Assembly (NCBI GenBank): GCA_964481525.1
Contig: CAYZTY010000004.1
Location: 1-45,617, forward strand
DNA length: 45,617 bases
Origin: an uncultured Pirellulales bacterium
Lineage (GTDB): Bacteria > Planctomycetota > Phycisphaerae > Sedimentisphaerales > CAYZTY01
Direction: 5' to 3'
A program made the position numbers and the translations under genes. How positions within the stretch are numbered: position 1 is the first letter of the stretch; each line of letters begins with the position of its first letter. This document shows positions 4,649 to 45,617 of the stretch, piece by piece. The notes under the pieces are model-generated. The model worked only from the letters and a program-made list of their open reading frames with translations. It searched no databases and was not told the origin of the DNA.

Positions 4649-5328
4649 TTTTCAGCTTGTCGAGAGGTCTTTTTCGTTTGCATATCCAGCTTCCAGATAT
4701 ATTTCTGTGTGCGATACACAACAATACACAAGACCACAATGGAGACCGGAAGCAAGTAGATTAAAATTTTCGCAAGCCATCCTGTGCCGAAGATCATTAT
4801 AAGGAAGTTGAGTATGATAAAGTAGATTCTGATTTCAGTCGGGCCGGCCGCTAAATATGTTATTTTGAATTCACCTGTCGCGCCGAAGGACAGAAATGAA
4901 CTTACCATAAAACAGCCGAAGACCGGAATCAATAGATAAACAAGCTGTTTGTTGATGCCTTCAAATAAGAATGAATATCCGATGAGAATCGAACTCATAA
5001 ACACGAAGTCGAGTAAATGGTCCATAAAAAAGCCCCACTTAGGGATGCCTGTGTCTCTCAGTCTGCCCAGAGCGCCGTCAAAGGAGTCTGTAAACCATTG
5101 CAAAAATATCATAATTGATGAGGCCCACAACCAGGCGTAATTGCGGCCGGCAAGCCAGCCGAATGTGATTAGGCCTGCCGAAATCGGGATGGTCATTAGC
5201 GTTAAATGATAGCCCTGTATCCAAGCGGGGAACCTGGGGGCATTTTCGTCGATGAGTTTTCTTTCGTATTTAGCAAGCAATGTTTTCATCGGTGTTTTTT
5301 TGTCGCCCCGAAAATTGTCATCACTCAT
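4645..5328 (-). CDS. CDP-alcohol phosphatidyltransferase family protein
   Basis: The protein is a membrane protein of 227 aa. It carries DSFDGALGRLRDTGIPKWGFFMDHLLD, which fits D-x2-D-G-x2-(A/G)-R-x8-12-G-x3-D-x3-D. Confidence 0.7.
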   Translation of the reverse strand: MSDDNFRGDKKTPMKTLLAKYERKLIDENAPRFPAWIQGYHLTLMTIPISAGLITFGWLAGRNYAWLWASSIMIFLQWFTDSFDGALGRLRDTGIPKWGFFMDHLLDFVFMSSILIGYSFLFEGINKQLVYLLIPVFGCFMVSSFLSFGATGEFKITYLAAGPTEIRIYFIILNFLIMIFGTGWLAKILIYLLPVSIVVLCIVVYRTQKYIWKLDMQTKKTSRQAEK

Positions 5329-5579: not shown

Positions 5580-6446
5580 TTATAAGGCTTCTGTATAAAC
5601 CAGTGTAGAGGCGAGGGCCTGGTGTCCGAGCATTTCTTTTACCGTGTACAAGTCGCAGCCGGTATGGAGCTTGCGCGCTGCAAAACTATGCCGGAGACTT
5701 CGAGGGCTAAACGAGCGGTCAAGACCGGCCGTTGCAAGACACATATCCATTTTTCTTCGCACATCTCGTTTGCTCAGACGCCGTCCGAACTTGTTCAGGA
5801 AAAGGGCCCGCCCACCGTTATTATATTCGGCAACTTTTTCTCGCTGTCTAATGTAGGCGGCAAGGGCGCAGACAGCCGGTTCTTCGAGGCTGATTGCCCT
5901 TTCTCTTTTTCCTTTTGTCCTGACGTAAAGAATTCTGTTGGCAAGGTCAATATCATCAACATTCAGCGCCACCAGTTCGCTGACCCTGACTCCCGTGCTG
6001 TATAGCGTGTGCAGCAGGGCCTTGTTTCTTGCTCCCAGCCAGTTGTGTGTAAACGGTGCCTCGAGCAGTTTTCTCGCTTCCCGGTCTTCCAGCAGTTTCA
6101 GGGGGGGGCGTTCGGGCTGCGGAATGTGAACCGCCTTGGCCGGGTTTGAGTTCACACCGTTTTGCTTTTCCAGAAACTTGTAAAAAGTACGGAGTGAAGC
6201 CAGCTTCCTGGCAGTCGAGGACTGAGAGTAGTTTTTCTTTTTGAGGGACTTTATATATGCCTTGATTGTTTCAGCATCGACGGCTTCGAGTGTGTGTTCG
6301 CTATGGGTTTTAGTGTTTCTGTTGGTCTGCAGAAAACATATGAACTGCTTCAAATCCAGCTCATAGCATCTTGCCGTTTGTTGCGAAAGGTGCCGCTGTA
6401 ACCTTAAATAATTAACGAAATCTTCACTTTTGCAAGAAGGTTTCAT
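5580..6446 (-). CDS. tyrosine site-specific recombinase, XerC/XerD-like
   Basis: The protein is 288 aa. It has an N-terminal SAM-like core-binding domain (YLRLQRHLSQQTARCYELDLKQF), Arg-I in GVRVSELVAL, GKGKRER, box II SPRSLRHSFA and LGHQALASTLVYTE (Tyr nucleophile). The position normally His in HxLRH is Arg here. There is no IntI-type extra domain. Confidence 0.85.
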   Translation of the reverse strand: MKPSCKSEDFVNYLRLQRHLSQQTARCYELDLKQFICFLQTNRNTKTHSEHTLEAVDAETIKAYIKSLKKKNYSQSSTARKLASLRTFYKFLEKQNGVNSNPAKAVHIPQPERPPLKLLEDREARKLLEAPFTHNWLGARNKALLHTLYSTGVRVSELVALNVDDIDLANRILYVRTKGKRERAISLEEPAVCALAAYIRQREKVAEYNNGGRALFLNKFGRRLSKRDVRRKMDMCLATAGLDRSFSPRSLRHSFAARKLHTGCDLYTVKEMLGHQALASTLVYTEAL

Positions 6447-6516
6447 AACTCACCTGCCTCTCCGGTCCCGATTCTATCGGGATTTCGCGCGGCCGAGTTT
6501 CTACTGCAAAATTTGT

Positions 6517-6557
6517 GGGGCCGACCTAAGACCGAACAGTGATCTTTGGCCGGCCCC
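6517..6557 (+). repeat. GC-rich hairpin carrying an inverted copy of the array core motif in its loop
   Basis: GGGGCCGACC (6517-6526) pairs 9/10 with GGCCGGCCCC (6548-6557). The 21-nt loop contains GACCGAACAGTGAT (6530-6543). That is the exact reverse complement of ATCACTGTTCGGTC at 6761-6774. Confidence 0.7.
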
Positions 6558-6642
6558 TAAAGCACGAGTGGTATTTCATCATTGCTACCGCCGGTTTGAC
6601 CGGCCCACCCCCTACCGCCAGACCCGCGGCAAAATATGGCAT

Positions 6643-6665
6643 CACTGTTCGGCCGCCAACCCAGC
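6643..6665 (-). repeat. core copy 1 (degenerate)
   Basis: CACTGTTCGGCCGCCAACCCAGC. The 5' half is conserved, the 3' half has diverged, and it is one nt shorter. Confidence 0.7.
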
Positions 6666-6762
6666 TTTTGGATGGGTTTCATAGTATTCACTCGTAAGCT
6701 TCTTTATGTTTATCACAGCATTTTCAGCCGTGCTGTTTTCCGCCGGGCCTGCCAACCAACAT

Positions 6763-6786
6763 CACTGTTCGGTCATCAAGCCCAGC
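6763..6786 (-). repeat. core copy 2 (consensus)
   Basis: Exact CACTGTTCGGTCATCAAGCCCAGC. Confidence 0.9.
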
Positions 6787-6878
6787 TCATAAGGAGGAGA
6801 GAGGTTCGTCACCTTATCACTTCTCACGGCCTCCTTGGCCGTGCTCGGTTTCTGCCGGGCCTGCTAACCTGGCGTGTT

Positions 6879-6902
6879 CACTGTTCGGTCATCAAGCCCA
6901 GC
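6879..6902 (-). repeat. core copy 3 (consensus)
   Basis: Exact CACTGTTCGGTCATCAAGCCCAGC. Confidence 0.9.
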
Positions 6903-7006
6903 GTGGGGGAGAAAACTCTTCTTTCTTGAGCCGGCGTATTGCCATCACGACGCAGGGTCGTGCTTGCTCTCTGCCGGGTCTGGCTAACCGATATAAATGC
7001 TTTTTG

Positions 7007-7030
7007 CACTGTTCGGTCATCAAACCCAGC
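7007..7030 (-). repeat. core copy 4 (one substitution)
   Basis: CACTGTTCGGTCATCAAACCCAGC. The G-to-A change at 7024 is matched by a C-to-T change at 6979 in its partner block. Confidence 0.9.
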
Positions 7031-7061
7031 GTAGAGGAAAGAGAACTGCCGCGCTTTATTT

Positions 7062-7484
7062 TTAAGTTTTCTCGCGTTCAGTTGTCTCTTTGATTGCTTT
7101 TATGCCTCGTATCGAGGCAACATCCTTAAGACCAAGGACCTGTCGAACCGCTTCCCGGAAATGCTCATCACTGCTGTGGTCGGTCAGGACAGCCGAGACG
7201 CCAAGGCTTCTTGCCGAGACCTCCTGTGCGTAGTTGCCCGCCTTGACCACTGCTATTGTCGGGATGTCCGGCCTTATACTGCGTAGCCGTTTCAGGAAGG
7301 TCCCGTCCGGCATGTCAGTCAGGTCCCAGTTACTGATTACGCTGTCAATCGATTCATTTTTAAAAGAGCTTGCAGCCTCAACACCGGACTGCACACTTAT
7401 CAGTCGAATCGGCAGTTCCTGCAAAACCTCGTGTTTGCCGTCAATGCCGACGGTTAATATCGTTGCCTGTACAAGGAGAATCAT
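7062..7484 (-). CDS. stand-alone receiver (REC)-like protein, probably degenerate
   Basis: The protein is 140 aa with CheY-like alternation. The candidate phospho-acceptor region is SVISNWDLTDMPDGTFLKRLR. The N-terminal acidic pair and the conserved Lys position are not obvious. There is no output domain. Confidence 0.5.
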   Translation of the reverse strand: MILLVQATILTVGIDGKHEVLQELPIRLISVQSGVEAASSFKNESIDSVISNWDLTDMPDGTFLKRLRSIRPDIPTIAVVKAGNYAQEVSARSLGVSAVLTDHSSDEHFREAVRQVLGLKDVASIRGIKAIKETTEREKT

Positions 7485-7910
7485 TTCGTTTCCAATCGCT
7501 TATTTACTTTTTCGCCGACCTGCTTGGGCAGGCCTGTGTTCTTAATTAATGTAGAGTAACAAACGCTGTGCCAGCCTTTAGTTTTGCGAATAAATTTTCA
7601 TAAGTGCTTTTAGATAAGCCGGTTATGATGTGTCCGTCTGGTGCCCCCGGTCCCCGGCAAATTTTTATTTAGTGGCCGCTTTGGCTGCTGCCGCCGGTCC
7701 TATGCCGCCCAAGTTTATTTTGGTGATGGCTTTAACGAAGCGTGTCCACTTTGGCCGGGCGCGGCCAAATCGGCTGCATAAATCTGCTTGTGACTTTATT
7801 AGCGGATTGCACTTAACAGTTCGATTCTGGAAAAAAGGTGTTGAAGTGGATAAATATTCAAGCCCGTTATTGCTGGGGTGTGTGTTCGTAGTACTTTGGT
7901 TTGCAAGTTG

Positions 7911-10900
7911 TTATGTTTTTGCGCCGCAGCATTTTTTGTATTTTTTTCCGCTGCCACAGGGGCAAGGCTCGTTTCGTCCAACCTTGGGCTTCTCAAGCTT
8001 TATTTGCTTAACTTTCGTTTCACCCTGTGGTGCAGCCGCCGCGGCACGCTGCCTTTCGGCCATCGCGAACTGGTTGACTTCGTCGTGGCGGGCGCTGCTG
8101 ACCTGCCAGACGCTTCTTGCCCTGGCGCCGGCCTCGAGGCGAACCTTGAAAATAATGTCCGTTACCCGCTCCTCAATAGTCTCCAGCATCTCGGTAAACA
8201 TCCGATAGCCTTCGTGCTTGTATTCGACCTTGGGGTCCTTCTCGGCCCAGGCCCGCAGGAAGACGCCTTCCTTCAGGTGGTCCATCCCGTACAGATGCTC
8301 TTTCCAGGACACGTCATAGATTTGCACAAGCACGTACTTCTCCAGCTCGCTTAGCTCTCGTCGCAGAAACTCTGCTCCGGCTTCGGCCAGTTTGGTCCGG
8401 GCCTGGTCGGGCCCAGCCAGCTCGTCTTCTTTCAGGGTTGTCTCGAATCTTTCACTTGCCCAGCCGGCCAGCTTGCCAGGCTCCAGTTCGCTGACTTTCT
8501 CAGCTATCTCCTCGAGCAATTGACCATTGTTGAAACTCTCGCTTAACTCCAGCAATTGCTTATGCACCGCCCGAGGTGAAGAATGTTGAATTTGCTCGGC
8601 CGAGAGGCCGGCGTTGAATTTTCTGTTCGCCCATTTAGCCAGTGCTTCAAACCCGTAGACGTTGGGACCCTCCGGTCCATAGGCCATATTCATCGCAAAC
8701 TCAACAGGATACTCAATCTCCCGCTGGCGGTACTCTGTCTTGATACTCTCGCTGAGCTGCTGGTAAATCTGCTCAGGCCTTTGGCCTTTCAAATCCTCCG
8801 GTCTCAGGGCAATACCGAATTTTGCCCTGGCCCACTCGGCGAAGCTCCGCAGGCCAAAATCGGGTTTGAGAAACTCAGCCAGTTGAGAACAATCCTTTTT
8901 ATCGATTTGTTCCTCGGCAGCCGAGATGAGCTGCTGTTCAATCTCCTCGGGTTCTGCGTGCTTTAGCTTGCCCGGACTCAGGCTCACTTTGTATGAGCTC
9001 ATAGCCCACTTGCAAAGGCCCTGAATGTCCCAGGTACTTCTATCCTGATAGTCTTCAAGATATTCGCCGAGCGAGAGTGATATATTATTGGCGGCGTTTT
9101 TTTTCGCTTCGGATTTTGCAAGCTCTTCAATCTCGTCCGCGGTGGCGTCGAGTATATTCGCGGTATTCAATTCGAGACTGAAGTTGCTTCGAAGCCACTC
9201 GGCCGCACACGAGTAAGGATAATCTTCGCGAAGTATTGTCCGGCAGTTTCTGTCAAGGACCGATTCAATCATTTGCTCGATAACGGCTTTGAGTCCTTTA
9301 CCTTCCAGGATTTTTCGCCGGCGGGAGTAAAAGATTTTTCTCTGATAGTCCATTACCTCGTCGTATTCCAGCAGACTCTTGCGGGCCTCAAAGTTTCGCT
9401 GCTCGACCTTTTTCTGGGCCTTTTCGATGCCTTTGCTTATTCTCGGATGATATATGGATTGACCTTCCTCCCAACCAATCCAGGAAAGTGCCTTTACAGT
9501 CCATTCGGGAGCGAAGACACGCATCAAGTCGTCGTCAAAGCTCAGGAAGAAGCGGTTGGAGCCTGCATCACCTTGTCTTCCGGCACGGCCTCGGAGCTGA
9601 TTATCAATTCGTCTTGCTTCGTGCCTTTCGGTTCCGACGATGTGCAGCCCGCCGATATCAGCCACGCCGGGGCCTAATTTGATGTCGGTGCCGCGTCCTG
9701 CCATATTTGTGGCAATGGTGACGTTTCCTCGCGGCTTGCCGTCTCTGCCGCGGTGCTGCTGGCCTGCCTTGGCGATAATTGCCGCTTCCCTTGCATGTTG
9801 TTTGGCGTTAAGCACCTCGTGCTCAATGCCGTATCTTTTCGAAAGCGCTTCTGAAAGCTCTTCATTTTTCTCGATGCTTGTTGTTCCCACCAGGACGGGC
9901 CGACCTGCGGCGCTGACCTGGTTTATCTCTTTGAGTGTTGCATCAAATTTTTCGGCCATACTTTTATAAATAACATCGTCCATATTTTCTCTGATGCACG
10001 GCTCGTTGGTCGGTATGACGACAACTTCGAGCTTATAGATATCCATAAACTCCTGCGCTTCAGTTACTGCGGTACCGGTCATACCTGCTATCTGTCCGTA
10101 AAGCTTGAAGAAGTTCTGCAGGGTAATCGTCGCAAGCGTCTGCGTTTCCTCCTTTATCGCCACCTCTTCTTTTGCCTCTACCGCCTGGTGCAAGCCGTCG
10201 GACCATTGCCGGCCGTGCATTAGCCGGCCTGTGAACTCGTCAACGATGATGACCTTGCCGTCCATAACCACGTAGTCTTTTTCTTTCTCAAAGACGGTGT
10301 GTGCTCGCAGGCTCTGCTCTAACATATGGGGCCATTCCATATTGGAGCCGGTGAAAAATGAACCCACGCCCGCGGCCTCCTGTGCGGCGGTTATTCCTTC
10401 GTGCGTCAGATGGACGGCCTTGCGGTCCGTCTCGATTTCGAAATACTCGGTCGCACCGGCTAATTTTGCCTCCTCTGCTTCAAGCTCGGCCTGTTTGCTT
10501 TCTATTGCCCTTTGTGCTTTTTCGACTCGCTGTTTGTCTTTCTGTTTTTTTGCGTCGGCTAATTCCCCCTCGGCACTTGCCAACTGTCGCTGGGCGGAGT
10601 CTATTTGTTTCTTGATGCGGCTGTAATGACTATGCAGATTTAATAACTGGCGGGCAACGGCATCGGCCTTTTTGTACCGGCCGGCCTCATCAAAGGCAGG
10701 ACCGGAAATTATCAACGGCGTTCGCGCTTCATCAATCAGAATCGAATCAACCTCGTCAATTATCGCATAGTCCAGAGGGCCCTGAACCATCTGCTCCAGT
10801 GACAGTTTCATATTGTCGCGAAGATAGTCGAAGCCGAATTCGTTGTTTGTTCCGTAGGTAATATCACACTGGTATTGGGCTTTCCGCTCCGGGCCGGAGG

Positions 10901-11585
10901 TATCCATATCTGCTTGTATGGCCCCGACCGTAAGGCCCAGCGCCCTGTAAACCGGCCCCATCCACTCAGCGTCGCGCTTGGCCAGGTAATCATTGACGGT
11001 AACAATATGGACCTTTCTGCCGGTAAGATGGACCAGATATGCCGCCAGAGTGGCGACGAGCGTTTTTCCCTCGCCGGTTACCATCTCGGCAATCTTGCTT
11101 TCGAAGAGCACCTGCCCGCCAATCAATTGGACATCGAAATGTCGGAATCGGAAGGGCGGCTTGGACTGTGGAAAAAGCCCCCGAATCTCGGCGTTAAACT
11201 GCACCGGCACATCAAGCTCATGTATGTCAATGCCATCGGCAAGCTGACGTTTGAGGTTCTCAAATATTGCCCGGCCATCGTCGCTGAGCTGAGACGTGTC
11301 GAATTTATGTTCCTCGAGAAGGACGTTACGGATTCCGAGGTGCCTGTCCGAGGTCTCCCGCACCGCGGCGAAGGCGTCCGGCAGAATCTCTTGCGCCGTT
11401 TGGCCATCGGCAAGACGCTGTTTAAGCCGGGCCGTTGTTGCCCTCAACTCGGCATCACTTGCCTGCTGGCAGGTGGGCTCCAGGGCGTTTATCCGGTCCA
11501 CCACCCGCGAATAGTTCTTTATCAATCGCTCGTTGCGGGAGCCGAAAATTTTTACCAGAGTTTTGCCGATTTTATCCAGTGGCAT
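7911..11585 (-). CDS. secA: preprotein translocase ATPase SecA (unusually long, 1224 aa)
   Basis: Walker A is [11 protein letters not shown] and the DEAD-like motif is [21 protein letters not shown]. Also present are [13 protein letters not shown] and [15 protein letters not shown], plus the C-terminal zinc finger [14 protein letters not shown]. Confidence 0.95.
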
Positions 11586-38022: not shown

Positions 38023-39020
38023 TTTTCCTTGTCCTGTGTAGATTCCTTTTTAGTAGTTTTCTCAACAAACCTCGCAGCAGAGCTGTCCGGCCAATTTTCT
38101 GTGACGTGCTGATAGTATAAATTGGCGGCCAGCTTGCTGTTTGTCTTTTCATAGTACTCACCGATGGCATATTGTTTATAAGCTATCTGCTCTTCAATAT
38201 GGGCGAGTATTTGTTCAACACCGATTTCCTCGGCATATTGTGGGTAACGCGACTGTAAATCCTGGAAATAACTCCTGGCGCTAATCAGGCTTGTGGCGTC
38301 ATATGTAGGTCCTCTATAGGCCGCGTGCATATTGCGTGCCATACCGAGCAATGCCTCCCTGCCCATATCGCCGTCCGGCCAGCGTGACGAAATTTGCGAC
38401 CAGGTTTCATACGCCTCGATAAATTTTTCTCTTTTCTCGTAGCTCATAGCGATTGATTTCATTGCCCGCTGTGCGATTGGTGCATCTCCCGCCCGTGCCG
38501 CTATTTTCTCCATTATTCTGACGCCCTCGCTATAACCCCTGATGCTGAAGAGCTTCAAAATTCGTCTCTTGTGTCCGGCAAGAAAGGCCGTCGCCACTTG
38601 GAACTGTCTGTCCATCGCCGTTTCGTAAAGTTCGCTCCTCGGATATTCGTCGAGGAATTTCTCATAGCTTCTAACTGCTTTATCGAATTGTCCCTTTGCC
38701 AGGAGCAGCTCAGCCTTAACAAACGCCTCAAACTCCCGCTCAATGACCTCTGGGAACGCCTCTTTGAGCTTTGCCAGTTTCTCTTTTGCTGCTTCAGGCT
38801 CCCCGCTGCTTACCATTTTTTTAATCTCAGCAACGGCCATAAGGTATTGGCCCTGATTATCTTCAGATACCTCTTGCCACTGCTCGTTTTCGTCCAGGCG
38901 CCAAGTCTTCGCCAGCACCGTGCTGCTCAGCATTATTACTGCTGTAAAGAACAGAATCCGGCTTACTTGCTTTAACATTCTTGTTCCCTTTCGCCTCCAA
39001 GCTTCCGAGAACCTTCTCAT
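38019..39020 (-). CDS. TPR-like protein, BamD/YfiO-like
   Basis: The protein is 333 aa. A signal-like N-terminus appears if translation starts at the Met at 38978 (MLKQVSRILFFTAVIMLSSTVLA). Helical repeats include GQFDKAVRSYEKFLDEYPRSELYETA. No lipobox Cys is present. Confidence 0.4.
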   Translation of the reverse strand: MRRFSEAWRRKGTRMLKQVSRILFFTAVIMLSSTVLAKTWRLDENEQWQEVSEDNQGQYLMAVAEIKKMVSSGEPEAAKEKLAKLKEAFPEVIEREFEAFVKAELLLAKGQFDKAVRSYEKFLDEYPRSELYETAMDRQFQVATAFLAGHKRRILKLFSIRGYSEGVRIMEKIAARAGDAPIAQRAMKSIAMSYEKREKFIEAYETWSQISSRWPDGDMGREALLGMARNMHAAYRGPTYDATSLISARSYFQDLQSRYPQYAEEIGVEQILAHIEEQIAYKQYAIGEYYEKTNSKLAANLYYQHVTENWPDSSAARFVEKTTKKESTQDKEK

Positions 39021-39289
39021 TATCTTTCTGGGGATAGTTAAGCACTCAGTTGTCTATCCTTCCCTTTTTATTATACTCCCTGTTGCCCGCCGTTGCAAAC
39101 ACCGTTATTCCACGTATTTTCCAGCCGAATTAGCTTCTTGAGAGCAGTGCTGAATACTATATCTGCGTCCATAAAAGAGTTCACCCGGTCAGGATGCCTA
39201 ATAGGGCCGATGTCTATGGGATTTTCCGCCCCGGGCGGACAATTTATCCTTGTTATGAGAGGCTCGCAGACACGGATTCGCTACAATAC

Positions 39290-39317
39290 TTGACTTTTGC
39301 TGTATAAGACTTAAAAT
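39290..39317 (+). promoter_or_regulatory. candidate sigma70-type promoter flanked by a 7-bp inverted repeat
   Basis: TTGACT (39290-39295), a 16-nt spacer, then TAAAAT (39312-39317). CTTGACT (39289-39295) and AGTCAAG (39318-39324) bracket it, so it may be an operator. Confidence 0.4.
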
Positions 39318-39368
39318 AGTCAAGCCTAAATTTCAGTAAAATTACTCACTTTCCTTGGTGGAGGAATT

Positions 39369-39446
39369 ATGACCGCCTTCTTGTTCTGGCTGAATATCGT
39401 GAAAATCAGCATCGGCTGGGCATTAATGGATGAGAAGGAGGGGTAA
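39369..39446 (+). CDS. candidate 25-aa leader or small hydrophobic peptide
   Basis: The ATG at 39369 lies 5 nt after GGAGG. It encodes MTAFLFWLNIVKISIGWALMDEKEG and sits about 50 nt downstream of the candidate promoter. It is too short to be called with confidence. Confidence 0.25.
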   Translation: MTAFLFWLNIVKISIGWALMDEKEG

Positions 39447-39944
39447 ATCATTTAGTCTTAGAGGCTGGGTTTTTCCCTGACAGGGATAAGGGGCGAACGT
39501 ATCGAGAGGAGGAAAGCAGTTTCATATATAGAACCGGAGCGATAGAGGGTTTGTCGGGCCATCAAGACGCTGTCCGGAGATGAGGTTTTGCCGATGGGGA
39601 AGGTTTGGTAGATATCTTAGTTGTAATAGCTGCAAAAAACCTTGTTTTCTGACCGCGGGATTGGTATTATTTTGGTGAGGTTTTCGGAGCGTAGGACGTT
39701 CAGGAAGAAGGCTGATTGCGCGGTTTTCGGCTTCGGTAATCCGTGGGGTTTTTCATAATTTCCTCAGGAGATTGAGGCTATGGAAGGTTCGAAAAATCAT
39801 GCTTTAGATAACCAATCGGTGTCAACAAATAGACAGAGGAAATCCGTTTTGAAGAGGTAATAAACCTGATTAGCGATTTGTGAAATCTCTGGAAATGCAA
39901 GTATTTAATTTTGCTTGTTGGCCTGGTTCTTTTTGATTGGAACG

Positions 39945-41249
39945 ATGGAACACAAGGACGAACTCATAAAACATGGAAGCTTAATGTTCCTGGCTGTTGC
40001 TGTGTTTAATATTTTCAACCTCTTATACCAGCTATATATGGTCAGGAATCTCAGCCCCGTAAATTACGGGGTCTTAAATTCTCTCTTTTCTATCTTGATG
40101 ATAGTATCCATTCCCAGCGGGACCCTGCAGACAGTGGTTACCAAGTTTATCTCGACCTTCTGTGCAATTAATCACCATGAGAGAATAAATCTTTTACTTT
40201 ACTCTTTTGCGAAGAAAACAATAGTGTTTAGTTTGGTTGCTCTCTTAGTGCTAATTTTTGGCAGTAGGAGTATTGCTTCGTTTCTTCAAATTACCTCTTC
40301 GCGATTGATAATGGTATTGGGTGTTGTAACATTTTTCTCAATACTTTTACCTCTTAGCCAAGGCGGGCTGCAAGGACTACAAAAGTTCGGATATTTAGGT
40401 TTAACTATGATTATTAATGGCGGCTTAAAATTACTTTTCGGTATTATATTTGTTAGTGTCGGCTTTGGAGTGATGGGGGCAATGAGTGCCCTGGGTATAG
40501 CGACATTTATCGCCCTTTTGCTATCCCTTGTCATGCTCGCTTCTGTGTTACCAAGACCTTTGGCTTCGATTCCGGGATTTTTGCGGTTTAAATCGAACAA
40601 TCCTGAACCTGAAACGAATTTTTCGGAGGTCTATAAATATTTTTATCCGGTGGCTACGGTCTTTTTTTGTTTTATGATTCTAACTAGTATGGATGTAGTC
40701 GTCGTTAAGCATTTCTTCAAACCTTTAGAGGCCGGGTATTACTCAATAGCACAAATGGCAGGAAAGATAATTCTTTTTTTACCGATTGCCATTACCTTAG
40801 TAATGTTCCCTAAGACATCTAACCTTCATGCACAAGCCAAGGCCACCTTACATCTTCTGGAGAAAAGTCTTTTGTATGTAGGAGTACTATGTGGGATAGC
40901 TGCTCTCGTCTGCCTTCTTTTTCCAGGTTTGGTGATAAGGTTGCTGTCAGGCGAGGAACATTTACATTGTATCCGGCTGGTCAGGATTTTTTCTGTTACC
41001 ATGGTCTTTTTTGCTCTGGTGTATGTCCTTCTGTTCTATCAGCTTTCCGTCCATCGCCTGAATTTCATTTATTCTCTGGTATTGCTTACGGTACTTCAGA
41101 TTCTTGCGATTACCTTATTCCATCAAAGTCTATCACAAGTTCTCTATATTATCTGTGGTAATGCTATGTTGCTTTTTTTAATCAATATGTTTCTTGTTTT
41201 GAAACGGAAGGAATTCCATGTTGCCTCTGGTATCGGTAGTAATTCCTAA
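39945..41249 (+). CDS. polysaccharide flippase (Wzx-like, MOP superfamily)
   Basis: The protein is about 434 aa with roughly 12-14 TM helices. It is the first gene of a sugar-modification cluster. The ATG at 39945 is preferred over the TTG at 39915. Confidence 0.65.
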   Translation: MEHKDELIKHGSLMFLAVAVFNIFNLLYQLYMVRNLSPVNYGVLNSLFSILMIVSIPSGTLQTVVTKFISTFCAINHHERINLLLYSFAKKTIVFSLVALLVLIFGSRSIASFLQITSSRLIMVLGVVTFFSILLPLSQGGLQGLQKFGYLGLTMIINGGLKLLFGIIFVSVGFGVMGAMSALGIATFIALLLSLVMLASVLPRPLASIPGFLRFKSNNPEPETNFSEVYKYFYPVATVFFCFMILTSMDVVVVKHFFKPLEAGYYSIAQMAGKIILFLPIAITLVMFPKTSNLHAQAKATLHLLEKSLLYVGVLCGIAALVCLLFPGLVIRLLSGEEHLHCIRLVRIFSVTMVFFALVYVLLFYQLSVHRLNFIYSLVLLTVLQILAITLFHQSLSQVLYIICGNAMLLFLINMFLVLKRKEFHVASGIGSNS

Positions 41250-42246
41250 TTGGAACGGGGAAAAGTATCTGAATGATTGCATAGCTTCTCTTAGAGAGCA
41301 GACCCATAATAATTTGGAGATAATTGTGGTGGATAATGCATCCAAGGATGATTCCGTGGAGTATTTACAAAAAAACTTCCCAAAGGTCAAAGTTGTAAGA
41401 CACAGCGAGAACCTCGGATTCGGGGCAGCGAATAACACAGGTATAAAGGCAGCCCAAGGCGAATATATTATGATGTTGAACAATGATACGAGATTAGAGC
41501 CGAGATGTATCGAGGAACTTAGGAAAAGTATTGATAAAGACGAGAAATTTGGCGCATGTGCTTCCAAGATACTATTAGAATATGAAAGTAATTTACTCGA
41601 TGTTGCAGGTATTGCAGTATGTTTGGATGGATTGTCCATAGGAAGAGGACGTCTTGAGAGTGGTGATAAATTCAATAAAGAAGAGGAGGTTTTTTTCGCA
41701 AGCGATTGCGCTTGTCTGTATAAAAAAGAAATGTTGGAAGATATTAGATTAACCAACGAAATTTACGATGAGGATTTTTTTGCCTATGCCGATGAAACGG
41801 ATATGGGCTGGAGGGCACAACTGGCTGGTTGGAAATGTGTATATAATCCTGAAGCAGTCGTGTATCATCTTCATTCTGCCAGCTCCAGTAGTTATTCACC
41901 TCTTAAGGCATTTTTAGTTGAGCGAAATAGAATCTGGGTCGCAGTTAAAAGTTTCCCTATTTCTTTTTTGATTCTGGGGATATTTTACACGGTTTTAAGA
42001 TATTTCTATCAAACTTTAGGTGCTTTAACCGGTAAGGGGGCTGCGGGAAGATTTACGAAAGAAGCGAGTAAATTTAAACTCGTGAGCATATTAATAAAAG
42101 CAAATATCTCGGCATTTTTAGGTTTGCCTAAAATGCTTAAAAAGAGAAGAGAGATTATGAAGAAAAAAAGGATATCCAACAAAGAAGTTTACACATTGTT
42201 AAAGAGATTTGGTATCAGTGCAAGAAAGATAGCTCTGAAAGAATAA
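41218..42246 (+). CDS. family 2 glycosyltransferase
   Basis: The N-terminus is VSVVIPNWNGEKYLNDCIASL. VDNASKDDS and MLNNDT (DxD-like) motifs are present, with a C-terminal TM segment. Confidence 0.85.
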   Translation: MLPLVSVVIPNWNGEKYLNDCIASLREQTHNNLEIIVVDNASKDDSVEYLQKNFPKVKVVRHSENLGFGAANNTGIKAAQGEYIMMLNNDTRLEPRCIEELRKSIDKDEKFGACASKILLEYESNLLDVAGIAVCLDGLSIGRGRLESGDKFNKEEEVFFASDCACLYKKEMLEDIRLTNEIYDEDFFAYADETDMGWRAQLAGWKCVYNPEAVVYHLHSASSSSYSPLKAFLVERNRIWVAVKSFPISFLILGIFYTVLRYFYQTLGALTGKGAAGRFTKEASKFKLVSILIKANISAFLGLPKMLKKRREIMKKKRISNKEVYTLLKRFGISARKIALKE

Positions 42247-42257
42247 GGAGGATATAA

Positions 42258-43367
42258 ATGATACCTGTTTTTAAACCATCTTACGGCAAAGAAGAGTTAG
42301 AAGCCTTAAAAGAGCCTTTTAAAACAGGCTGGATAGGTTTGGGGCCAAAGACGAAAGAGTTTGAGAAGCAATTTGCTGAGTATATTGGAGTCAAATACTC
42401 GGTTGCTACAAATTCTTGCACGGCGGCACTACATCTTGCTATGAAAGTGATGGGCGTGGGAGGTTGTGAGGTAATTACAACACCACTAACTTTCGTATCT
42501 ACTAATCATGCCATCATTTATAATAATGGATTCCCCGTCTTTGCTGATATATATCCGGACACATTAAATATTAATCCTGATGAGATAAAGAAATTGATTA
42601 CTGATAAGACGAGGGCAATTGTTGCCGTCCATTACGGTGGTCATCCTTGCGATATGGACCTTATCAATGAGATAGCCAAGGAACATAATTTGGCTGTAAT
42701 TGAGGATGCAGCCCATGGTTGTGGTGGTGAATATAAAGGCCGAAAGATAGGTTCTTTGGGTGATGTCGCCTGTTTCAGCTTTCATGCCGTCAAGAATTTG
42801 GCAACGGCGGATGGGGGTATGATTACCACAGATGACCCCGAAATTAATAGCAGATTATTGAAACTGAGATGGATGGGTATAACAAAGGACACTTGGGCGA
42901 GAGAAGATAAAGATAAAAAATATTCGTGGTATTATAATGTAGAGGAGGTTGGCTATAAATGTCATATGAATGATATAACCGCTGCTCTCGGGTTGGTACA
43001 ACTTAAAAAACTCGATAGGATGAACGATAGGAGAAGGGAGATAACCGAGAAGTATAATAAAGGTTTTGCTAATTTAGGTTGGTTAGAAACGCCAGTGCTT
43101 AAGAGCTATGCCAAAAGCGCTTGTCATAATTATGTTATTAAGGCAAAGGACAGAGACAGGTTGAATGCCTACCTTCAGGAAAATGGGATTTCTACCGGTG
43201 TCCATTATATACCTAATAATCATTACCAGATGTATAAGAATTGCCGAGGTGAGACGCCCGTTTGCGAAAATGTATGGACGAAATTGCTAACATTGCCTTT
43301 ATTTCCCGACTTAAAAGATTCTGAGGTAGATATGATTATAGAAAAGGTGAGGAGGTTTAAAGAATAG
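42258..43367 (+). CDS. DegT/DnrJ/EryC1/StrS-family sugar aminotransferase
   Basis: The protein is 369 aa. The PLP-Lys motif is SFHAVKNLATADGGMI, and VIEDAAHG is present. An SD (AGGAGG) lies upstream. Confidence 0.85.
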   Translation: MIPVFKPSYGKEELEALKEPFKTGWIGLGPKTKEFEKQFAEYIGVKYSVATNSCTAALHLAMKVMGVGGCEVITTPLTFVSTNHAIIYNNGFPVFADIYPDTLNINPDEIKKLITDKTRAIVAVHYGGHPCDMDLINEIAKEHNLAVIEDAAHGCGGEYKGRKIGSLGDVACFSFHAVKNLATADGGMITTDDPEINSRLLKLRWMGITKDTWAREDKDKKYSWYYNVEEVGYKCHMNDITAALGLVQLKKLDRMNDRRREITEKYNKGFANLGWLETPVLKSYAKSACHNYVIKAKDRDRLNAYLQENGISTGVHYIPNNHYQMYKNCRGETPVCENVWTKLLTLPLFPDLKDSEVDMIIEKVRRFKE

Positions 43368-43371
43368 AGGT

Positions 43372-44328
43372 ATGGAATATGTAAAATGTAATTTTTGCAA
43401 TAACGACGATACGCAGCCATTGTTTTCCAAGAAGGAAAAATTCGGCTTATCTGACTGTGATTTTAGAGTTGTTCAATGCCAAAAGTGTGGATTGATTTAT
43501 ATTAATCCCAGACCTTTAGGAAGTGAAATCGTCAAATTTTATCCTGATACATATTCCTGGAAAGAAACTCTGACGGCAGAATCTGCAGTTACTAAATTAA
43601 TAAGAAAATTAGAGAAGACATACAGACATCATTTACTAAATTATGAAACTTCAAAGGTTATTAAAGTAACTAATAAAAAGACAGGGAAGTTGCTTGATGT
43701 TGGCTGTGGTTCAGGTGACAGGCTGGATATTTTTAGACGAAAGGGCTTTGAGACCTATGGTGTAGAGATATCTTCGTCAGGAGAATATGCGAGAGAGCAT
43801 CTCGGATTAAATGTGAAACAGGGAGATTTGTTTGAGGCGAGTTATCCTGATTCTTATTTCGATATCATCACACTTTTCAATGTGTTAGAACACACTCACG
43901 ATCCACAAAAGGTTATTGGTGAAGCGCGCAGAATTTTGAAAAAAGACGGGATTATTACTATTCAAGTTCCCAATACAGAGTGTATCCAATTTAGACTTTT
44001 TAAGGAAAGATGGGCGGCAGTGGATGCTCCCAGGGATTTATATTATTTTAATCCTGATATCATATCCAGTCTTTTAGAAAAGCATGGTCTTCAAGTAATA
44101 AAAACTGACCACTTTACGAATTGGTGGCATCCGCCGACAATTGTTATAAGTCTATTTCCAAATCTCGACCCTCAAAAAGCATGGCAAGAAGAGAAAAAAA
44201 AGAATAATCCTATTTTTGAGAGATTATCATGGATATTTTGGACGTTGGTACTACCCCCCTTCGCATTTTTTGAAAGTATTATGAAAAAGGCGGCAATAGT
44301 TACGGTTTATGCTAAGAGGGTCGGTTAA
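43372..44328 (+). CDS. class I SAM-dependent methyltransferase with an N-terminal zinc ribbon
   Basis: CNFCNN…CQKCG forms the ribbon, followed by SAM motif I LLDVGCGSGDRL and an acidic post-I residue. Confidence 0.8.
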   Translation: MEYVKCNFCNNDDTQPLFSKKEKFGLSDCDFRVVQCQKCGLIYINPRPLGSEIVKFYPDTYSWKETLTAESAVTKLIRKLEKTYRHHLLNYETSKVIKVTNKKTGKLLDVGCGSGDRLDIFRRKGFETYGVEISSSGEYAREHLGLNVKQGDLFEASYPDSYFDIITLFNVLEHTHDPQKVIGEARRILKKDGIITIQVPNTECIQFRLFKERWAAVDAPRDLYYFNPDIISSLLEKHGLQVIKTDHFTNWWHPPTIVISLFPNLDPQKAWQEEKKKNNPIFERLSWIFWTLVLPPFAFFESIMKKAAIVTVYAKRVG

Positions 44329-44901
44329 ATGTCAGGGAAGCTATTAAAGTTTTTATATTTTGGAATTGGCTTTAGGTTAAGGTATTTCTTCTGGAAGTTC
44401 GTTGTTGTTTCCTCGGGAGGGATGATTGGTAAAAATGTAAAGATTTACGAAGGTGTAAGAATACTTTGCAATCATCCCGGCGCAATAAGCATTGGAGACA
44501 ATGCCCGTATATTGCGTAATGTTACTATAAGCACTTCTGAATCAGGAAATATCTCGATAGGAAATAATATCCATATTGGCGAGAGTTCAATAATTTTCAG
44601 TTATCAAGAAGTTACGATAAAAAATGACGTAACTATCGGCCCACAAAATATCATTGTTGATGTTGACCACGTCTATCGAGATATAGATGTCCCAATAAAT
44701 AAACAAGGATATAATGCGAAAAGAGTCTTAATTGAGGATGATGTTTGGATTTCCTCAAATTGTTGCATAATAAAAGGAGTTGTTATAGGCAAAGGTTCCG
44801 TAATAGGCGCAGGTTCAGTTGTTAATAAGAGTGTACCTCCTTATAGCGTGGCCTGTGGTGTGCCTGCAAAGGTAATTAGAAAAAGGGGGGAAAGTGATTA
44901 A
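44329..44901 (+). CDS. hexapeptide-repeat (left-handed beta-helix) acyl/acetyltransferase
   Basis: The protein is 190 aa with repeated [LIV]-G-x4 hexapeptides (ISIGDNARI, ISIGNNIHIGESSII, VTIGPQNII, VVIGKGSVIGAGSVV). Confidence 0.75.
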   Translation: MSGKLLKFLYFGIGFRLRYFFWKFVVVSSGGMIGKNVKIYEGVRILCNHPGAISIGDNARILRNVTISTSESGNISIGNNIHIGESSIIFSYQEVTIKNDVTIGPQNIIVDVDHVYRDIDVPINKQGYNAKRVLIEDDVWISSNCCIIKGVVIGKGSVIGAGSVVNKSVPPYSVACGVPAKVIRKRGESD

Positions 44902-45617
44902 TAAAAAATTATTTTTACTTGTTCTATGCTGTTCTTTTTTAGTATTAATTGCGGGTCTGACTTCTGTGCTCTGCCTGGGTGATGAGGTGTCGCACTTTCG
45001 TTTTGCAAAAGCTATCTGCAATACCGGCAACCGTGTAGCTTTTGACCCTTTATATGACAATAGAAGTCCGTTGGGTTATTTTTATAAAAGCGCCCCTCTC
45101 TGGCATGTACTATTGGCATTGCTTTGGAGATTATTTGGTACTATATCTTTTTCTATTGCGCAAGTTTATCATACTGTTTACTATATACTGTTGATATTAT
45201 TTACATATTTCTTAGGAAAAGAACTCTATGGAGAAAGCCAAGGGTTGTATTCTGCTTTAATCGTTGCAACTATTCCCAGCATCGCTGCTTTTAGTGTGTT
45301 ATTTTACTTGGATATTCCCGCCACCAGTTTAAGCATATTATGTTTGTTGTTAATTGTTAAAAGAAAATTTCTATGGTCGGGAGTAGTACTGGGATTAATG
45401 TATCTTACAAAAAGGAATACATGCTTTTTTGTCCCTTCTTTTTTCTTTTTGATACTTTATCAATCTGAAGCTGGCGTCAGGGAAAAGCTTAAGAATCTCT
45501 TCTACTTTTCTGTTCCTGCTTTTTTATTCATATTGCTCGATTTTTTGTGGCGAGAAAATAATCTTAAGTCATTTGCTGTAGTAGATGGTGGCGTTGTGCT
45601 GCGAAGCGGCGGCACTT
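44894..45617 (+). CDS. polytopic membrane protein, GT-C (ArnT/PMT-like) glycosyltransferase-like, 3' truncated by the window edge
   Basis: The frame is open from GTG 44894 to the window end (241 codons, not in the ORF track). It has multiple TM helices and an early GDEVSHF (DE-type loop motif of GT-C enzymes). The start overlaps the upstream stop. Confidence 0.45.
   Translation, partial: MINKKLFLLVLCCSFLVLIAGLTSVLCLGDEVSHFRFAKAICNTGNRVAFDPLYDNRSPLGYFYKSAPLWHVLLALLWRLFGTISFSIAQVYHTVYYILLILFTYFLGKELYGESQGLYSALIVATIPSIAAFSVLFYLDIPATSLSILCLLLIVKRKFLWSGVVLGLMYLTKRNTCFFVPSFFFLILYQSEAGVREKLKNLFYFSVPAFLFILLDFLWRENNLKSFAVVDGGVVLRSGGT

Follow-up and report, generated by a model that had tools for sequence, protein, structure and literature searches.

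Tandem structured RNA modules beside a pseudo-receiver gene in Planctomycetota: probably a sigma-54-controlled multi-copy regulatory RNA

Does the repeat array that separates a recombinase gene from a receiver-like gene in an uncultured planctomycete provide sites for the recombinase, or does it specify an RNA? The window analysed here, a stretch of 45,617 nucleotides (assembly GCA_964481525.1, contig CAYZTY010000004.1), carries both genes on its minus strand, and an earlier note made from the sequence alone had described tandem, structured repeats in the gap between them. As candidate roles, this note proposed a multi-copy small RNA, a cis-regulatory leader, or folded-DNA sites used by the adjacent recombinase.

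The surrounding genes of the window are ordinary chromosomal ones (SecA, EF-P, RNase R, cytochrome c maturation, Rnf, FtsH and SHMT). The predicted SecA (7911-11585, minus strand) is 1224 aa long, and the 290-position SecA_DEAD profile is spread over its residues 12-513, which implies a large insertion. The GC content of positions 39000-45617 is 0.37-0.40, compared to approximately 0.50 elsewhere in the window, and this part may be a compositionally distinct island.

A tandem array of structured modules in the window

The core of the repeat, CACTGTTCGGTC on the plus strand, was found exactly at 6763, 6879 and 7007 and with one mismatch at 6643, giving core-to-core spacings of 120, 116 and 128 nt. 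Five core matches were observed, against a mean of 0.12 in shuffled window sequence, and the block GCCGGGYCTG…CACTGTTCGG upstream of the core occurred three times against zero expected. The direct copies, their periods and the conserved block before each good copy, all described in the earlier note, are therefore borne out. A fifth copy of the core (12-17 nt), overlooked in the earlier note, lies inverted at 6530-6546, inside a terminator-like hairpin. In total, the window contains three good modules of approximately 105-112 nt each and a degenerate fourth copy (Table 1), and the modules start 15 nt past the stop codon of the pseudo-receiver ORF. Tandem Repeats Finder did not report the array when run on the window, as the units are too divergent outside the core. 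The gap had been called ORF-free. This is not strictly so, given that two mechanical ORFs on the plus strand (84 and 97 aa) overlap with it; the argument that the periods are not multiples of 3 stands, and the evidence for an RNA comes from the opposite strand. Tiny ORFs such as AUGAGCUGGGCUUGA showed no conservation between modules and were rejected. Two further assemblies carried an identical sequence and were hence uninformative.

Table 1. Features of the array and its flanks in the window (module numbers follow the minus strand; copy numbers are those of the earlier note).
Feature	Position	Strand	Details
Tyrosine recombinase gene	5580-6446	-	288 aa
Gap with tandem array	6447-7061		between two minus-strand genes, recombinase and receiver-like
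Terminator-like hairpin with tail	6507-6557	-	hairpin 6517-6557, tail ACAAAUUUUG; carries inverted core; U run on minus strand
Degenerate terminal unit (copy 1)	6558-6703	-	H1-like hairpin 6617-6665; core 6643-6665; kept within window clade
Module 3 (copy 2)	6704-6806	-	CU tract CCUCUCUCCUCCUUAUGA, H1, H2 CACGGC/GCUGUG; CM R1 37.8 bits, E = 1.4e-6
Module 2 (copy 3)	6814-6917	-	type A leader GAGUUUUCUCCCCC, H1, H2 CACGGCC/GGCCGUG; CM R1 26.8 bits, E = 4e-4
Module 1 (copy 4)	6936-7047	-	CU tract, H1 GCUGGGUUUG…CAGACCCGGC, H2 CACGAC/GUCGUG; CM R1 37.8 bits, E = 1.4e-6
Pseudo-receiver ORF	7062-7484	-	140 aa; anchor gene of module arrays
Sigma-54-type -24/-12 promoter-like element	7559-7573	-	TGGCACagcgtTTGT; 89 nt upstream of receiver-like ORF
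Candidate sigma-54 activator enhancer sites	7672-7773	-	GCCAAAGyGGmC-like repeats, resembling CGACCAAnnnGGTCG of distant loci

Read on the strand of the receiver gene, each module consists of a CU tract, a first hairpin (H1), an A-rich linker, a second hairpin (H2) and an AU-rich spacer. Alignment of the modules from approximately 60 loci gave the consensus yUCUCUCUCCyCUUCUUC for the CU tract, GCUGGGUUUG-loop-CAAACCCAGC for H1, ACGAAA… for the linker and GAUAAnnAUAA for the spacer. The 10-bp stem of H1, GCUGGGYUUG…CARRCCCRGC, is almost invariant in sequence, while the 6-bp H2 is conserved in structure only and varies freely (CACGGC/GCCGUG, CACCCC/GGGGUG, CGUGGC/GCCACG and CGCGGU/ACCGCG, for example). 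The first module of each array is of a variant that we termed type A. Its leader, GAGGAGUUUUCUCCCCCC, is able to self-pair, its H1 is extended by a second inner helix (UAACC/GGUUR) with conserved junctions, and the 3' arm of this H1 ends in CCGGC, resulting in U·G pairs. Within the window clade, every module carries a type-A-like H1. The core as originally defined corresponds to the complement of the H1 5' arm, one strand of the inner helix and the junction (GCUGGGCUUG-AUGACC-GAACAGUG). A pseudoknot or triplex formed by the CU tract with either the linker or H1 was also considered and rejected, given that the complementarity was inconsistent.

Covariation supports the proposed structure, and folding and the types of base pair identify the window's minus strand as the RNA sense strand. 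Compared with shuffled sequences, the gap folded with z = -9.45 on the minus strand and z = -3.85 on the plus strand. In a MAFFT alignment built without reference to the structure, 95.5% of the cells were paired, compared to 32-43% when the partners were slid; double-change cells numbered 49 against 10.7 in shuffles, and compensatory changes were present in five of the six H2 pairs. The model-fitted alignment (146 distinct sequences) gave the same picture of pairing. On the gene-sense strand, G·U pairs outnumbered A·C combinations by approximately nine to one (129 versus 14; 38 versus 4 in the MAFFT alignment), and this excess indicates that the folded molecule is an RNA of the receiver strand and not a set of double-stranded DNA sites. 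The proposal of covarying helices in a minus-strand RNA co-oriented with the flanking genes is consequently upheld, down to its details: the H1 arms with C/A positions that turn into G·U on the minus strand, the compensatory double change (T at 6979, A at 7024), and the H2 hairpins at 6825-6843 and 6946-6962 could all be recovered.

Distribution and novelty of the module family

The covariance model CM R1 rests on 42 modules, all of which come from distant genomes and none from the window clade. With this model, each of the three good modules of the window was recovered from the minus strand, at 26.8-37.8 bits (E = 4e-4 to 1.4e-6), and no other match in the 45-kb window was significant, even with filters off; the degenerate copy 1 likewise gave no match, even in this mode. 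The search of related genomes with such a model, which the earlier note had suggested, returned 239 matches at E <= 0.01 in 64 loci (893 kb). All of these lie on the strand of the receiver gene, except for three antisense matches that overlap sense matches. Among the best 150 matches, 148 fall within 750 nt of the ORF, with 29 upstream and 121 downstream. The sole off-anchor matches among these 150 are a pair in locus L023 (13251-13358 and 14124-14231), two good modules that lie downstream of the receiver gene, at distances of 2.9 and 3.7 kb.

The modules accompany the receiver-like gene in approximately 60 loci, at one to eight copies per locus. They lie on either side of the pseudo-receiver ORF, in its 5' UTR as well as in its 3' UTR, in arrays that are often longer than the 420-nt ORF itself. 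In the close relatives L004, L005/L012 and L006, the order is receiver gene, array, inverted copy and recombinase gene, with four to six direct core copies (the modules of L005 and L012 are identical). In distant relatives, whose receivers are 55-69% identical, 0.4-1 kb of repeat-filled, ORF-free sequence lies behind the receiver gene and, in some cases, also in front of it. The genes further downstream vary in these distant loci and often encode PEP-CTERM proteins. In several distant loci, the array is immediately followed by a tRNA gene in convergent orientation (L041 11340-11414, L059 11811-11884 and L052 8191-8264, all on the minus strand).

That the repeats match no described RNA family, as the earlier note had surmised, is borne out by scans against Rfam 15, a comparison that took in STAXI, Qrr, CrcZ, CsrB and Acido-Lenti-1. 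At the gathering score, nothing besides tRNAs was found in the window and seven distant loci; at E <= 10, only chance-level matches were obtained over positions 6350-7150, and locus L059 gave none at E <= 1. When metagenome contigs were scanned for exact 24-mers, only the two contigs known beforehand came up, and a 17-mer scan of viral contigs gave eight chance-level matches and no module. Our full-text searches of the literature revealed no prior description of the module. The module is thus a previously undescribed structured RNA family, present in many Phycisphaerae-type Planctomycetota.

A putative sigma-54-type transcription unit and its boundaries

The anchor gene encodes a protein that scores 28.2 bits against the Pfam Response_reg profile, below the cutoff of 30.2. 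Its 404 homologues are highly conserved and come from MAGs of Planctomycetota, Phycisphaerae and Sedimentisphaerales. The N-terminal acidic pair of receivers is replaced by 'VQA', and the phospho-acceptor Asp by K or N within an invariant DSVIS(K/N)W motif, hence our designation as pseudo-receiver.

In 53 of 59 loci, the region upstream of this gene contains a single sigma-54-type element, TGGCAC-N5-TCGCT, which is located at -58 to -106 where no modules precede the ORF and at -186 to -962 where modules occupy the 5' UTR. Only about seven other matches to this element were present in 858 kb, counting both strands. In the window clade, the element reads TGGCAC-N5-TTGT(T/A) and is located at -88 or -89, with a -12 element that deviates (GT for GC); the earlier note had overlooked the copy in the window. 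The modules are anchored to a sigma-54-type operon with a conserved -24/-12 promoter and the pseudo-receiver ORF. Further upstream, the repeats at 7672-7773 are candidate enhancer sites, recognised by inspection. A gene for a sigma-54 activator lies just upstream in approximately 40 independent loci (tblastn; 45 rows, some of which duplicate the same contig), and no such gene is present in the 45-kb window. The activator (L007 2392-3498 and its homologues) has approximately 45 residues before its AAA+ core and carries neither a sensory nor a receiver domain, and is in this respect PspF-like.

Between the modules, we detected neither a sigma-70-like or sigma-54-like promoter nor a hairpin followed by a U run, a weak negative result given that the consensus used for the scan may not be that of the phylum. 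A sigma-54 promoter inside the modules (CGGCAG-N-GCA, overlapping the H1 3' arm) was dismissed, as its spacing is inconsistent between modules. A simple promoter and terminator scan of the gap returned nothing and missed the long hairpin at 6517-6557, which was seen by direct folding. This terminator-like hairpin lies between the array and the recombinase gene in the window clade, where its folding energy is -28 to -30 kcal/mol (-30 kcal/mol in the window), and it separates the two, contrary to the idea that the array is the leader of the recombinase gene. It is kept in L004, L005 and L006 with runs of five to eight U, and the window's run of four U is the weakest of the four. A C-to-U change in the hairpin preserves pairing as G·U on the minus strand only. 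The 7-nt hairpin loop, ACUGUUC (6534-6540), is exactly complementary to GAACAGU, which is present in the loop of every window-clade module (in the H1 loops of the window at approximately 6764-6770, 6880-6886 and 7008-7014). Judging from this complementarity, a kissing-loop interaction of the terminator with the modules could influence whether transcription stops ahead of the xer gene.

Proposed function and alternatives

The earlier note had pointed to a CU-rich, anti-Shine-Dalgarno-like stretch next to each core, and indeed every module carries an 18-nt pyrimidine tract. Across 118 distinct modules, the tract is 96% pyrimidine with a mean of 0.2 G; CCUC or CUCC is present in 103 of these 118 tracts, and a second CU run occurs in the H1 loop of 40 modules. 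Predicted accessibility was 0.61 for the tract and 0.47 for the rest of the RNA, which is a modest gain. Beside some CU tracts there are GA-rich segments (GAGGAG in type A modules, and also in some terminal modules), which fits pairing of the CU tract with GGAG-like sequences. The likeness to an anti-Shine-Dalgarno sequence and these potentially masking segments together suggest pairing with purine-rich ribosome-binding sites. When long purine tracts at the gene starts of the window were inspected as candidate targets, they were unremarkable and no specific target emerged. Within the array of L007, an 18-nt GGA-rich tandem repeat, GGAGAAAACUUUAGGGUC, is present in approximately seven copies (4852-5020); it is partly complementary to the CU tract, and an internal anti-seed and a CsrA-type site are its candidate roles.

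Of the roles proposed at the outset, a multi-copy regulatory RNA is the best reading, and it is probably sigma-54-controlled. The unit would comprise the promoter, the pseudo-receiver ORF, the tandem modules and the terminator, and the array would be co-transcribed with the ORF when the PspF-like activator fires. The modules would then act as multi-copy base-pairing regulators by means of their pyrimidine tracts, either as parts of the long RNA or once RNases have cut at the AU-rich spacers, and the CU tracts and CU-rich H1 loops would occlude purine-rich ribosome-binding sites on target mRNAs. We see about an even chance that the gap specifies a modular non-coding RNA of this kind, transcribed from the minus strand within a sigma-54 unit, whose modules base-pair with ribosome-binding sites. 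Counting against it are the deviating -12 element of the window and the lack of an activator gene in its 45 kb, the modest accessibility gain of the CU tract and the failure to find a specific target.

The main rival is a long protein-sequestering RNA resembling CsrB/RsmZ or CrcZ, in which the repeated CU tracts and H1 platforms would titrate an RNA-binding protein once the activator fires. Several modules lie in one apparent transcript with no terminator between them, at copy numbers of one to eight, and CrcZ is likewise sigma-54-dependent and contains repeated motifs. The near-invariant H1 stem, set against an H2 that is free to vary, would be explained by protein recognition at least as well as by a role in structure alone, and keeps this explanation alive. 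However, the only candidate partner protein linked to the locus is the pseudo-receiver, which has no known RNA-binding domain. The modules also lack GGA or CA-type motifs, the repeated unit is a whole two-hairpin module of 90-125 nt and not a short loop motif, and the GA-rich masking segments point to RNA-RNA pairing. We therefore consider protein sequestration unlikely, though it deserves to be taken seriously. A purely cis-acting role in the pseudo-receiver mRNA, with the modules serving as stabilising hairpins or as entry sites for Rho or RNases and having no function in trans, is less likely still and in our view rather improbable. It would agree with the presence of modules in the 5' UTR and 3' UTR of one ORF, with the stable hairpins and with the resemblance of YC-rich tracts to Rho-binding sequence; nonetheless, up to eight copies and an 18-nt tract conserved across a bacterial class exceed what mRNA stabilisation needs, and the arrays often outlength the ORF they would serve.

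Two DNA-level explanations are effectively excluded. Folded-DNA or duplex recombination sites, whether attC-like, dif-like or part of an invertible switch, were suggested by the Xer-type gene that starts 61 nt beyond the terminator hairpin, by the one core copy inverted relative to the other four, and by copy numbers that differ between related assemblies. Yet the modules follow the receiver gene everywhere, while the recombinase is confined to the window subclade: by tblastn it adjoins the array in only five fetched records (the window, L004, L005, L006 and L012), and it is absent from about 55 other module-carrying loci, so that the co-occurrence with this recombinase family, which the earlier note had proposed to test, does not hold. 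The best NCBIfam matches of the recombinase are XerC (253 bits) and XerD (235 bits), whereas it reaches 94.8 bits against integron integrase (cutoff 265) and 55 bits against invertase (cutoff 221). Integron attC arrays are similar in that imperfect palindromes, repeated in tandem beside a tyrosine recombinase, fold in a strand-specific manner, but the enzyme here is not IntI, GTTCGGT does not fit the attC core GTTRRRY, there are no cassettes, and the array is anchored to another gene. An invertible switch or shufflon would show a segment in both orientations and a dedicated invertase, in contrast to the single inverted copy of the window and the one arrangement, with no inverted variant, in all four distinct assemblies. 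STAXI, an Rfam family of tandemly repeated pseudoknots found close to genes for XerDC integrase, Ssb and topoisomerase, with a proposed role involving single-stranded nucleic acid, is comparable in that the modules also adjoin an Xer-type gene. Unlike STAXI, the modules consist of two hairpins and a CU tract with no pseudoknot, they have no covariance-model match to it at E <= 10, and their recombinase link is not conserved. Considering also the ratio of G·U over A·C pairs, a recombination function is very improbable. The same holds for a generic REP/BIME-like or MITE-like dispersed repeat that accumulated by chance: the units are short, palindromic, tandemly variable and intergenic, but no extra copies were found in the 45-kb window or in approximately 0.85 Mb of flanks of the 64 loci, except the two in L023, their orientation to the anchor gene and promoter is fixed, and viral contigs gave no real matches.

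For base-pairing regulation by the modules, the closest precedents are the C/U-rich small RNAs of Firmicutes. LhrC was shown experimentally to bind the Shine-Dalgarno sequence through redundant CU-rich sites that lie in a loop and in an unpaired stretch (PMC4132741). Like the modules, LhrC1-5 of Listeria monocytogenes (PMC4132741), RsaE and the csRNAs (PMC4507080) exist in several homologous copies, some of them in tandem, and LhrC-type RNAs display CU-rich motifs in single-stranded and loop positions, as the modules do. These motifs pair with Shine-Dalgarno regions, a property that we infer for the modules, and the expression of LhrC-type RNAs is under a signal-transduction regulator, comparable to the presumed activator of the modules. 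There are also clear differences. Every LhrC or csRNA copy comes with a promoter and a terminator of its own, while the modules have neither and apparently share one sigma-54 promoter with the ORF, which counts against a reading as sibling small RNAs. Moreover, the pyrimidine tract of the modules (approximately 18 nt) is much longer than LhrC-type motifs, no sequence or covariance-model similarity exists, and the host phylum is a different one.

The putative mode of transcription is reminiscent of other systems. A -24/-12 promoter and a nearby gene for an enhancer-binding protein are features that the modules share with Qrr and CrcZ. The Qrr small RNAs depend on LuxO and sigma-54, and CrcZ/CrcY on CbrB and sigma-54. 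The multiple copies of Qrr and the motifs repeated within one CrcZ RNA are comparable to the repetition of the modules. However, Qrr RNAs are encoded by separate genes, the repeats of CrcZ are short A-rich Hfq/Crc-binding motifs in place of 100-nt modules with two hairpins, a co-transcribed pseudo-receiver ORF accompanies neither of them, and no Rfam match to either was obtained. CsrB/RsmZ sponges carry many GGA loop motifs, whereas the modules are pyrimidine-rich and a GGA-rich repeat was seen in a single distant locus (L007). The module is hence likened to both C/U-rich multicopy small RNAs and sigma-54-dependent regulatory RNAs and is a member of neither group; what is new about it is that the tandem units lack promoters and terminators of their own, that a pseudo-receiver ORF is embedded in the unit, and that it occurs in this phylum.

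A further parallel concerns the protein encoded in the unit. PspF consists of an AAA+ core and an HTH with no sensory domain, and the first product of its operon could regulate it in trans. The activator described here has the same architecture, but its putative partner is a CheY-like pseudo-receiver and not PspA, and the Psp operon contains no RNA array. By analogy with PspA and PspF, the pseudo-receiver may feed back on the activator. Taken to its full extent, the model would be that of a novel class of regulatory RNA in bacteria, a sigma-54-induced polycistronic precursor, cut or uncut, in which up to eight anti-Shine-Dalgarno mimics flank the pseudo-receiver ORF. These would mask the Shine-Dalgarno sites of a regulon or compete with ribosomes generally, with PspA/PspF-like feedback by the pseudo-receiver and, in the window clade, a loop-loop contact that tunes read-through into xer. 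We put this complete scheme forward as a speculation and doubt that it will hold in all its parts.

To our knowledge, almost nothing is known about RNA-based regulation in Planctomycetota. If our interpretation is correct, the modules represent an RNA family that spans a bacterial class, is strongly supported by covariation and receives a clear transcriptional input from sigma-54 and a dedicated activator, in an unusual layout where a small ORF shares one unit with many sRNA-like modules. The tempting link to the neighbouring recombinase is corrected by this analysis, and the covariance model is ready to be used for annotating sediment and peat metagenomes. The family would also offer a concrete, testable case of multi-copy, anti-Shine-Dalgarno-like regulation outside the Firmicutes.
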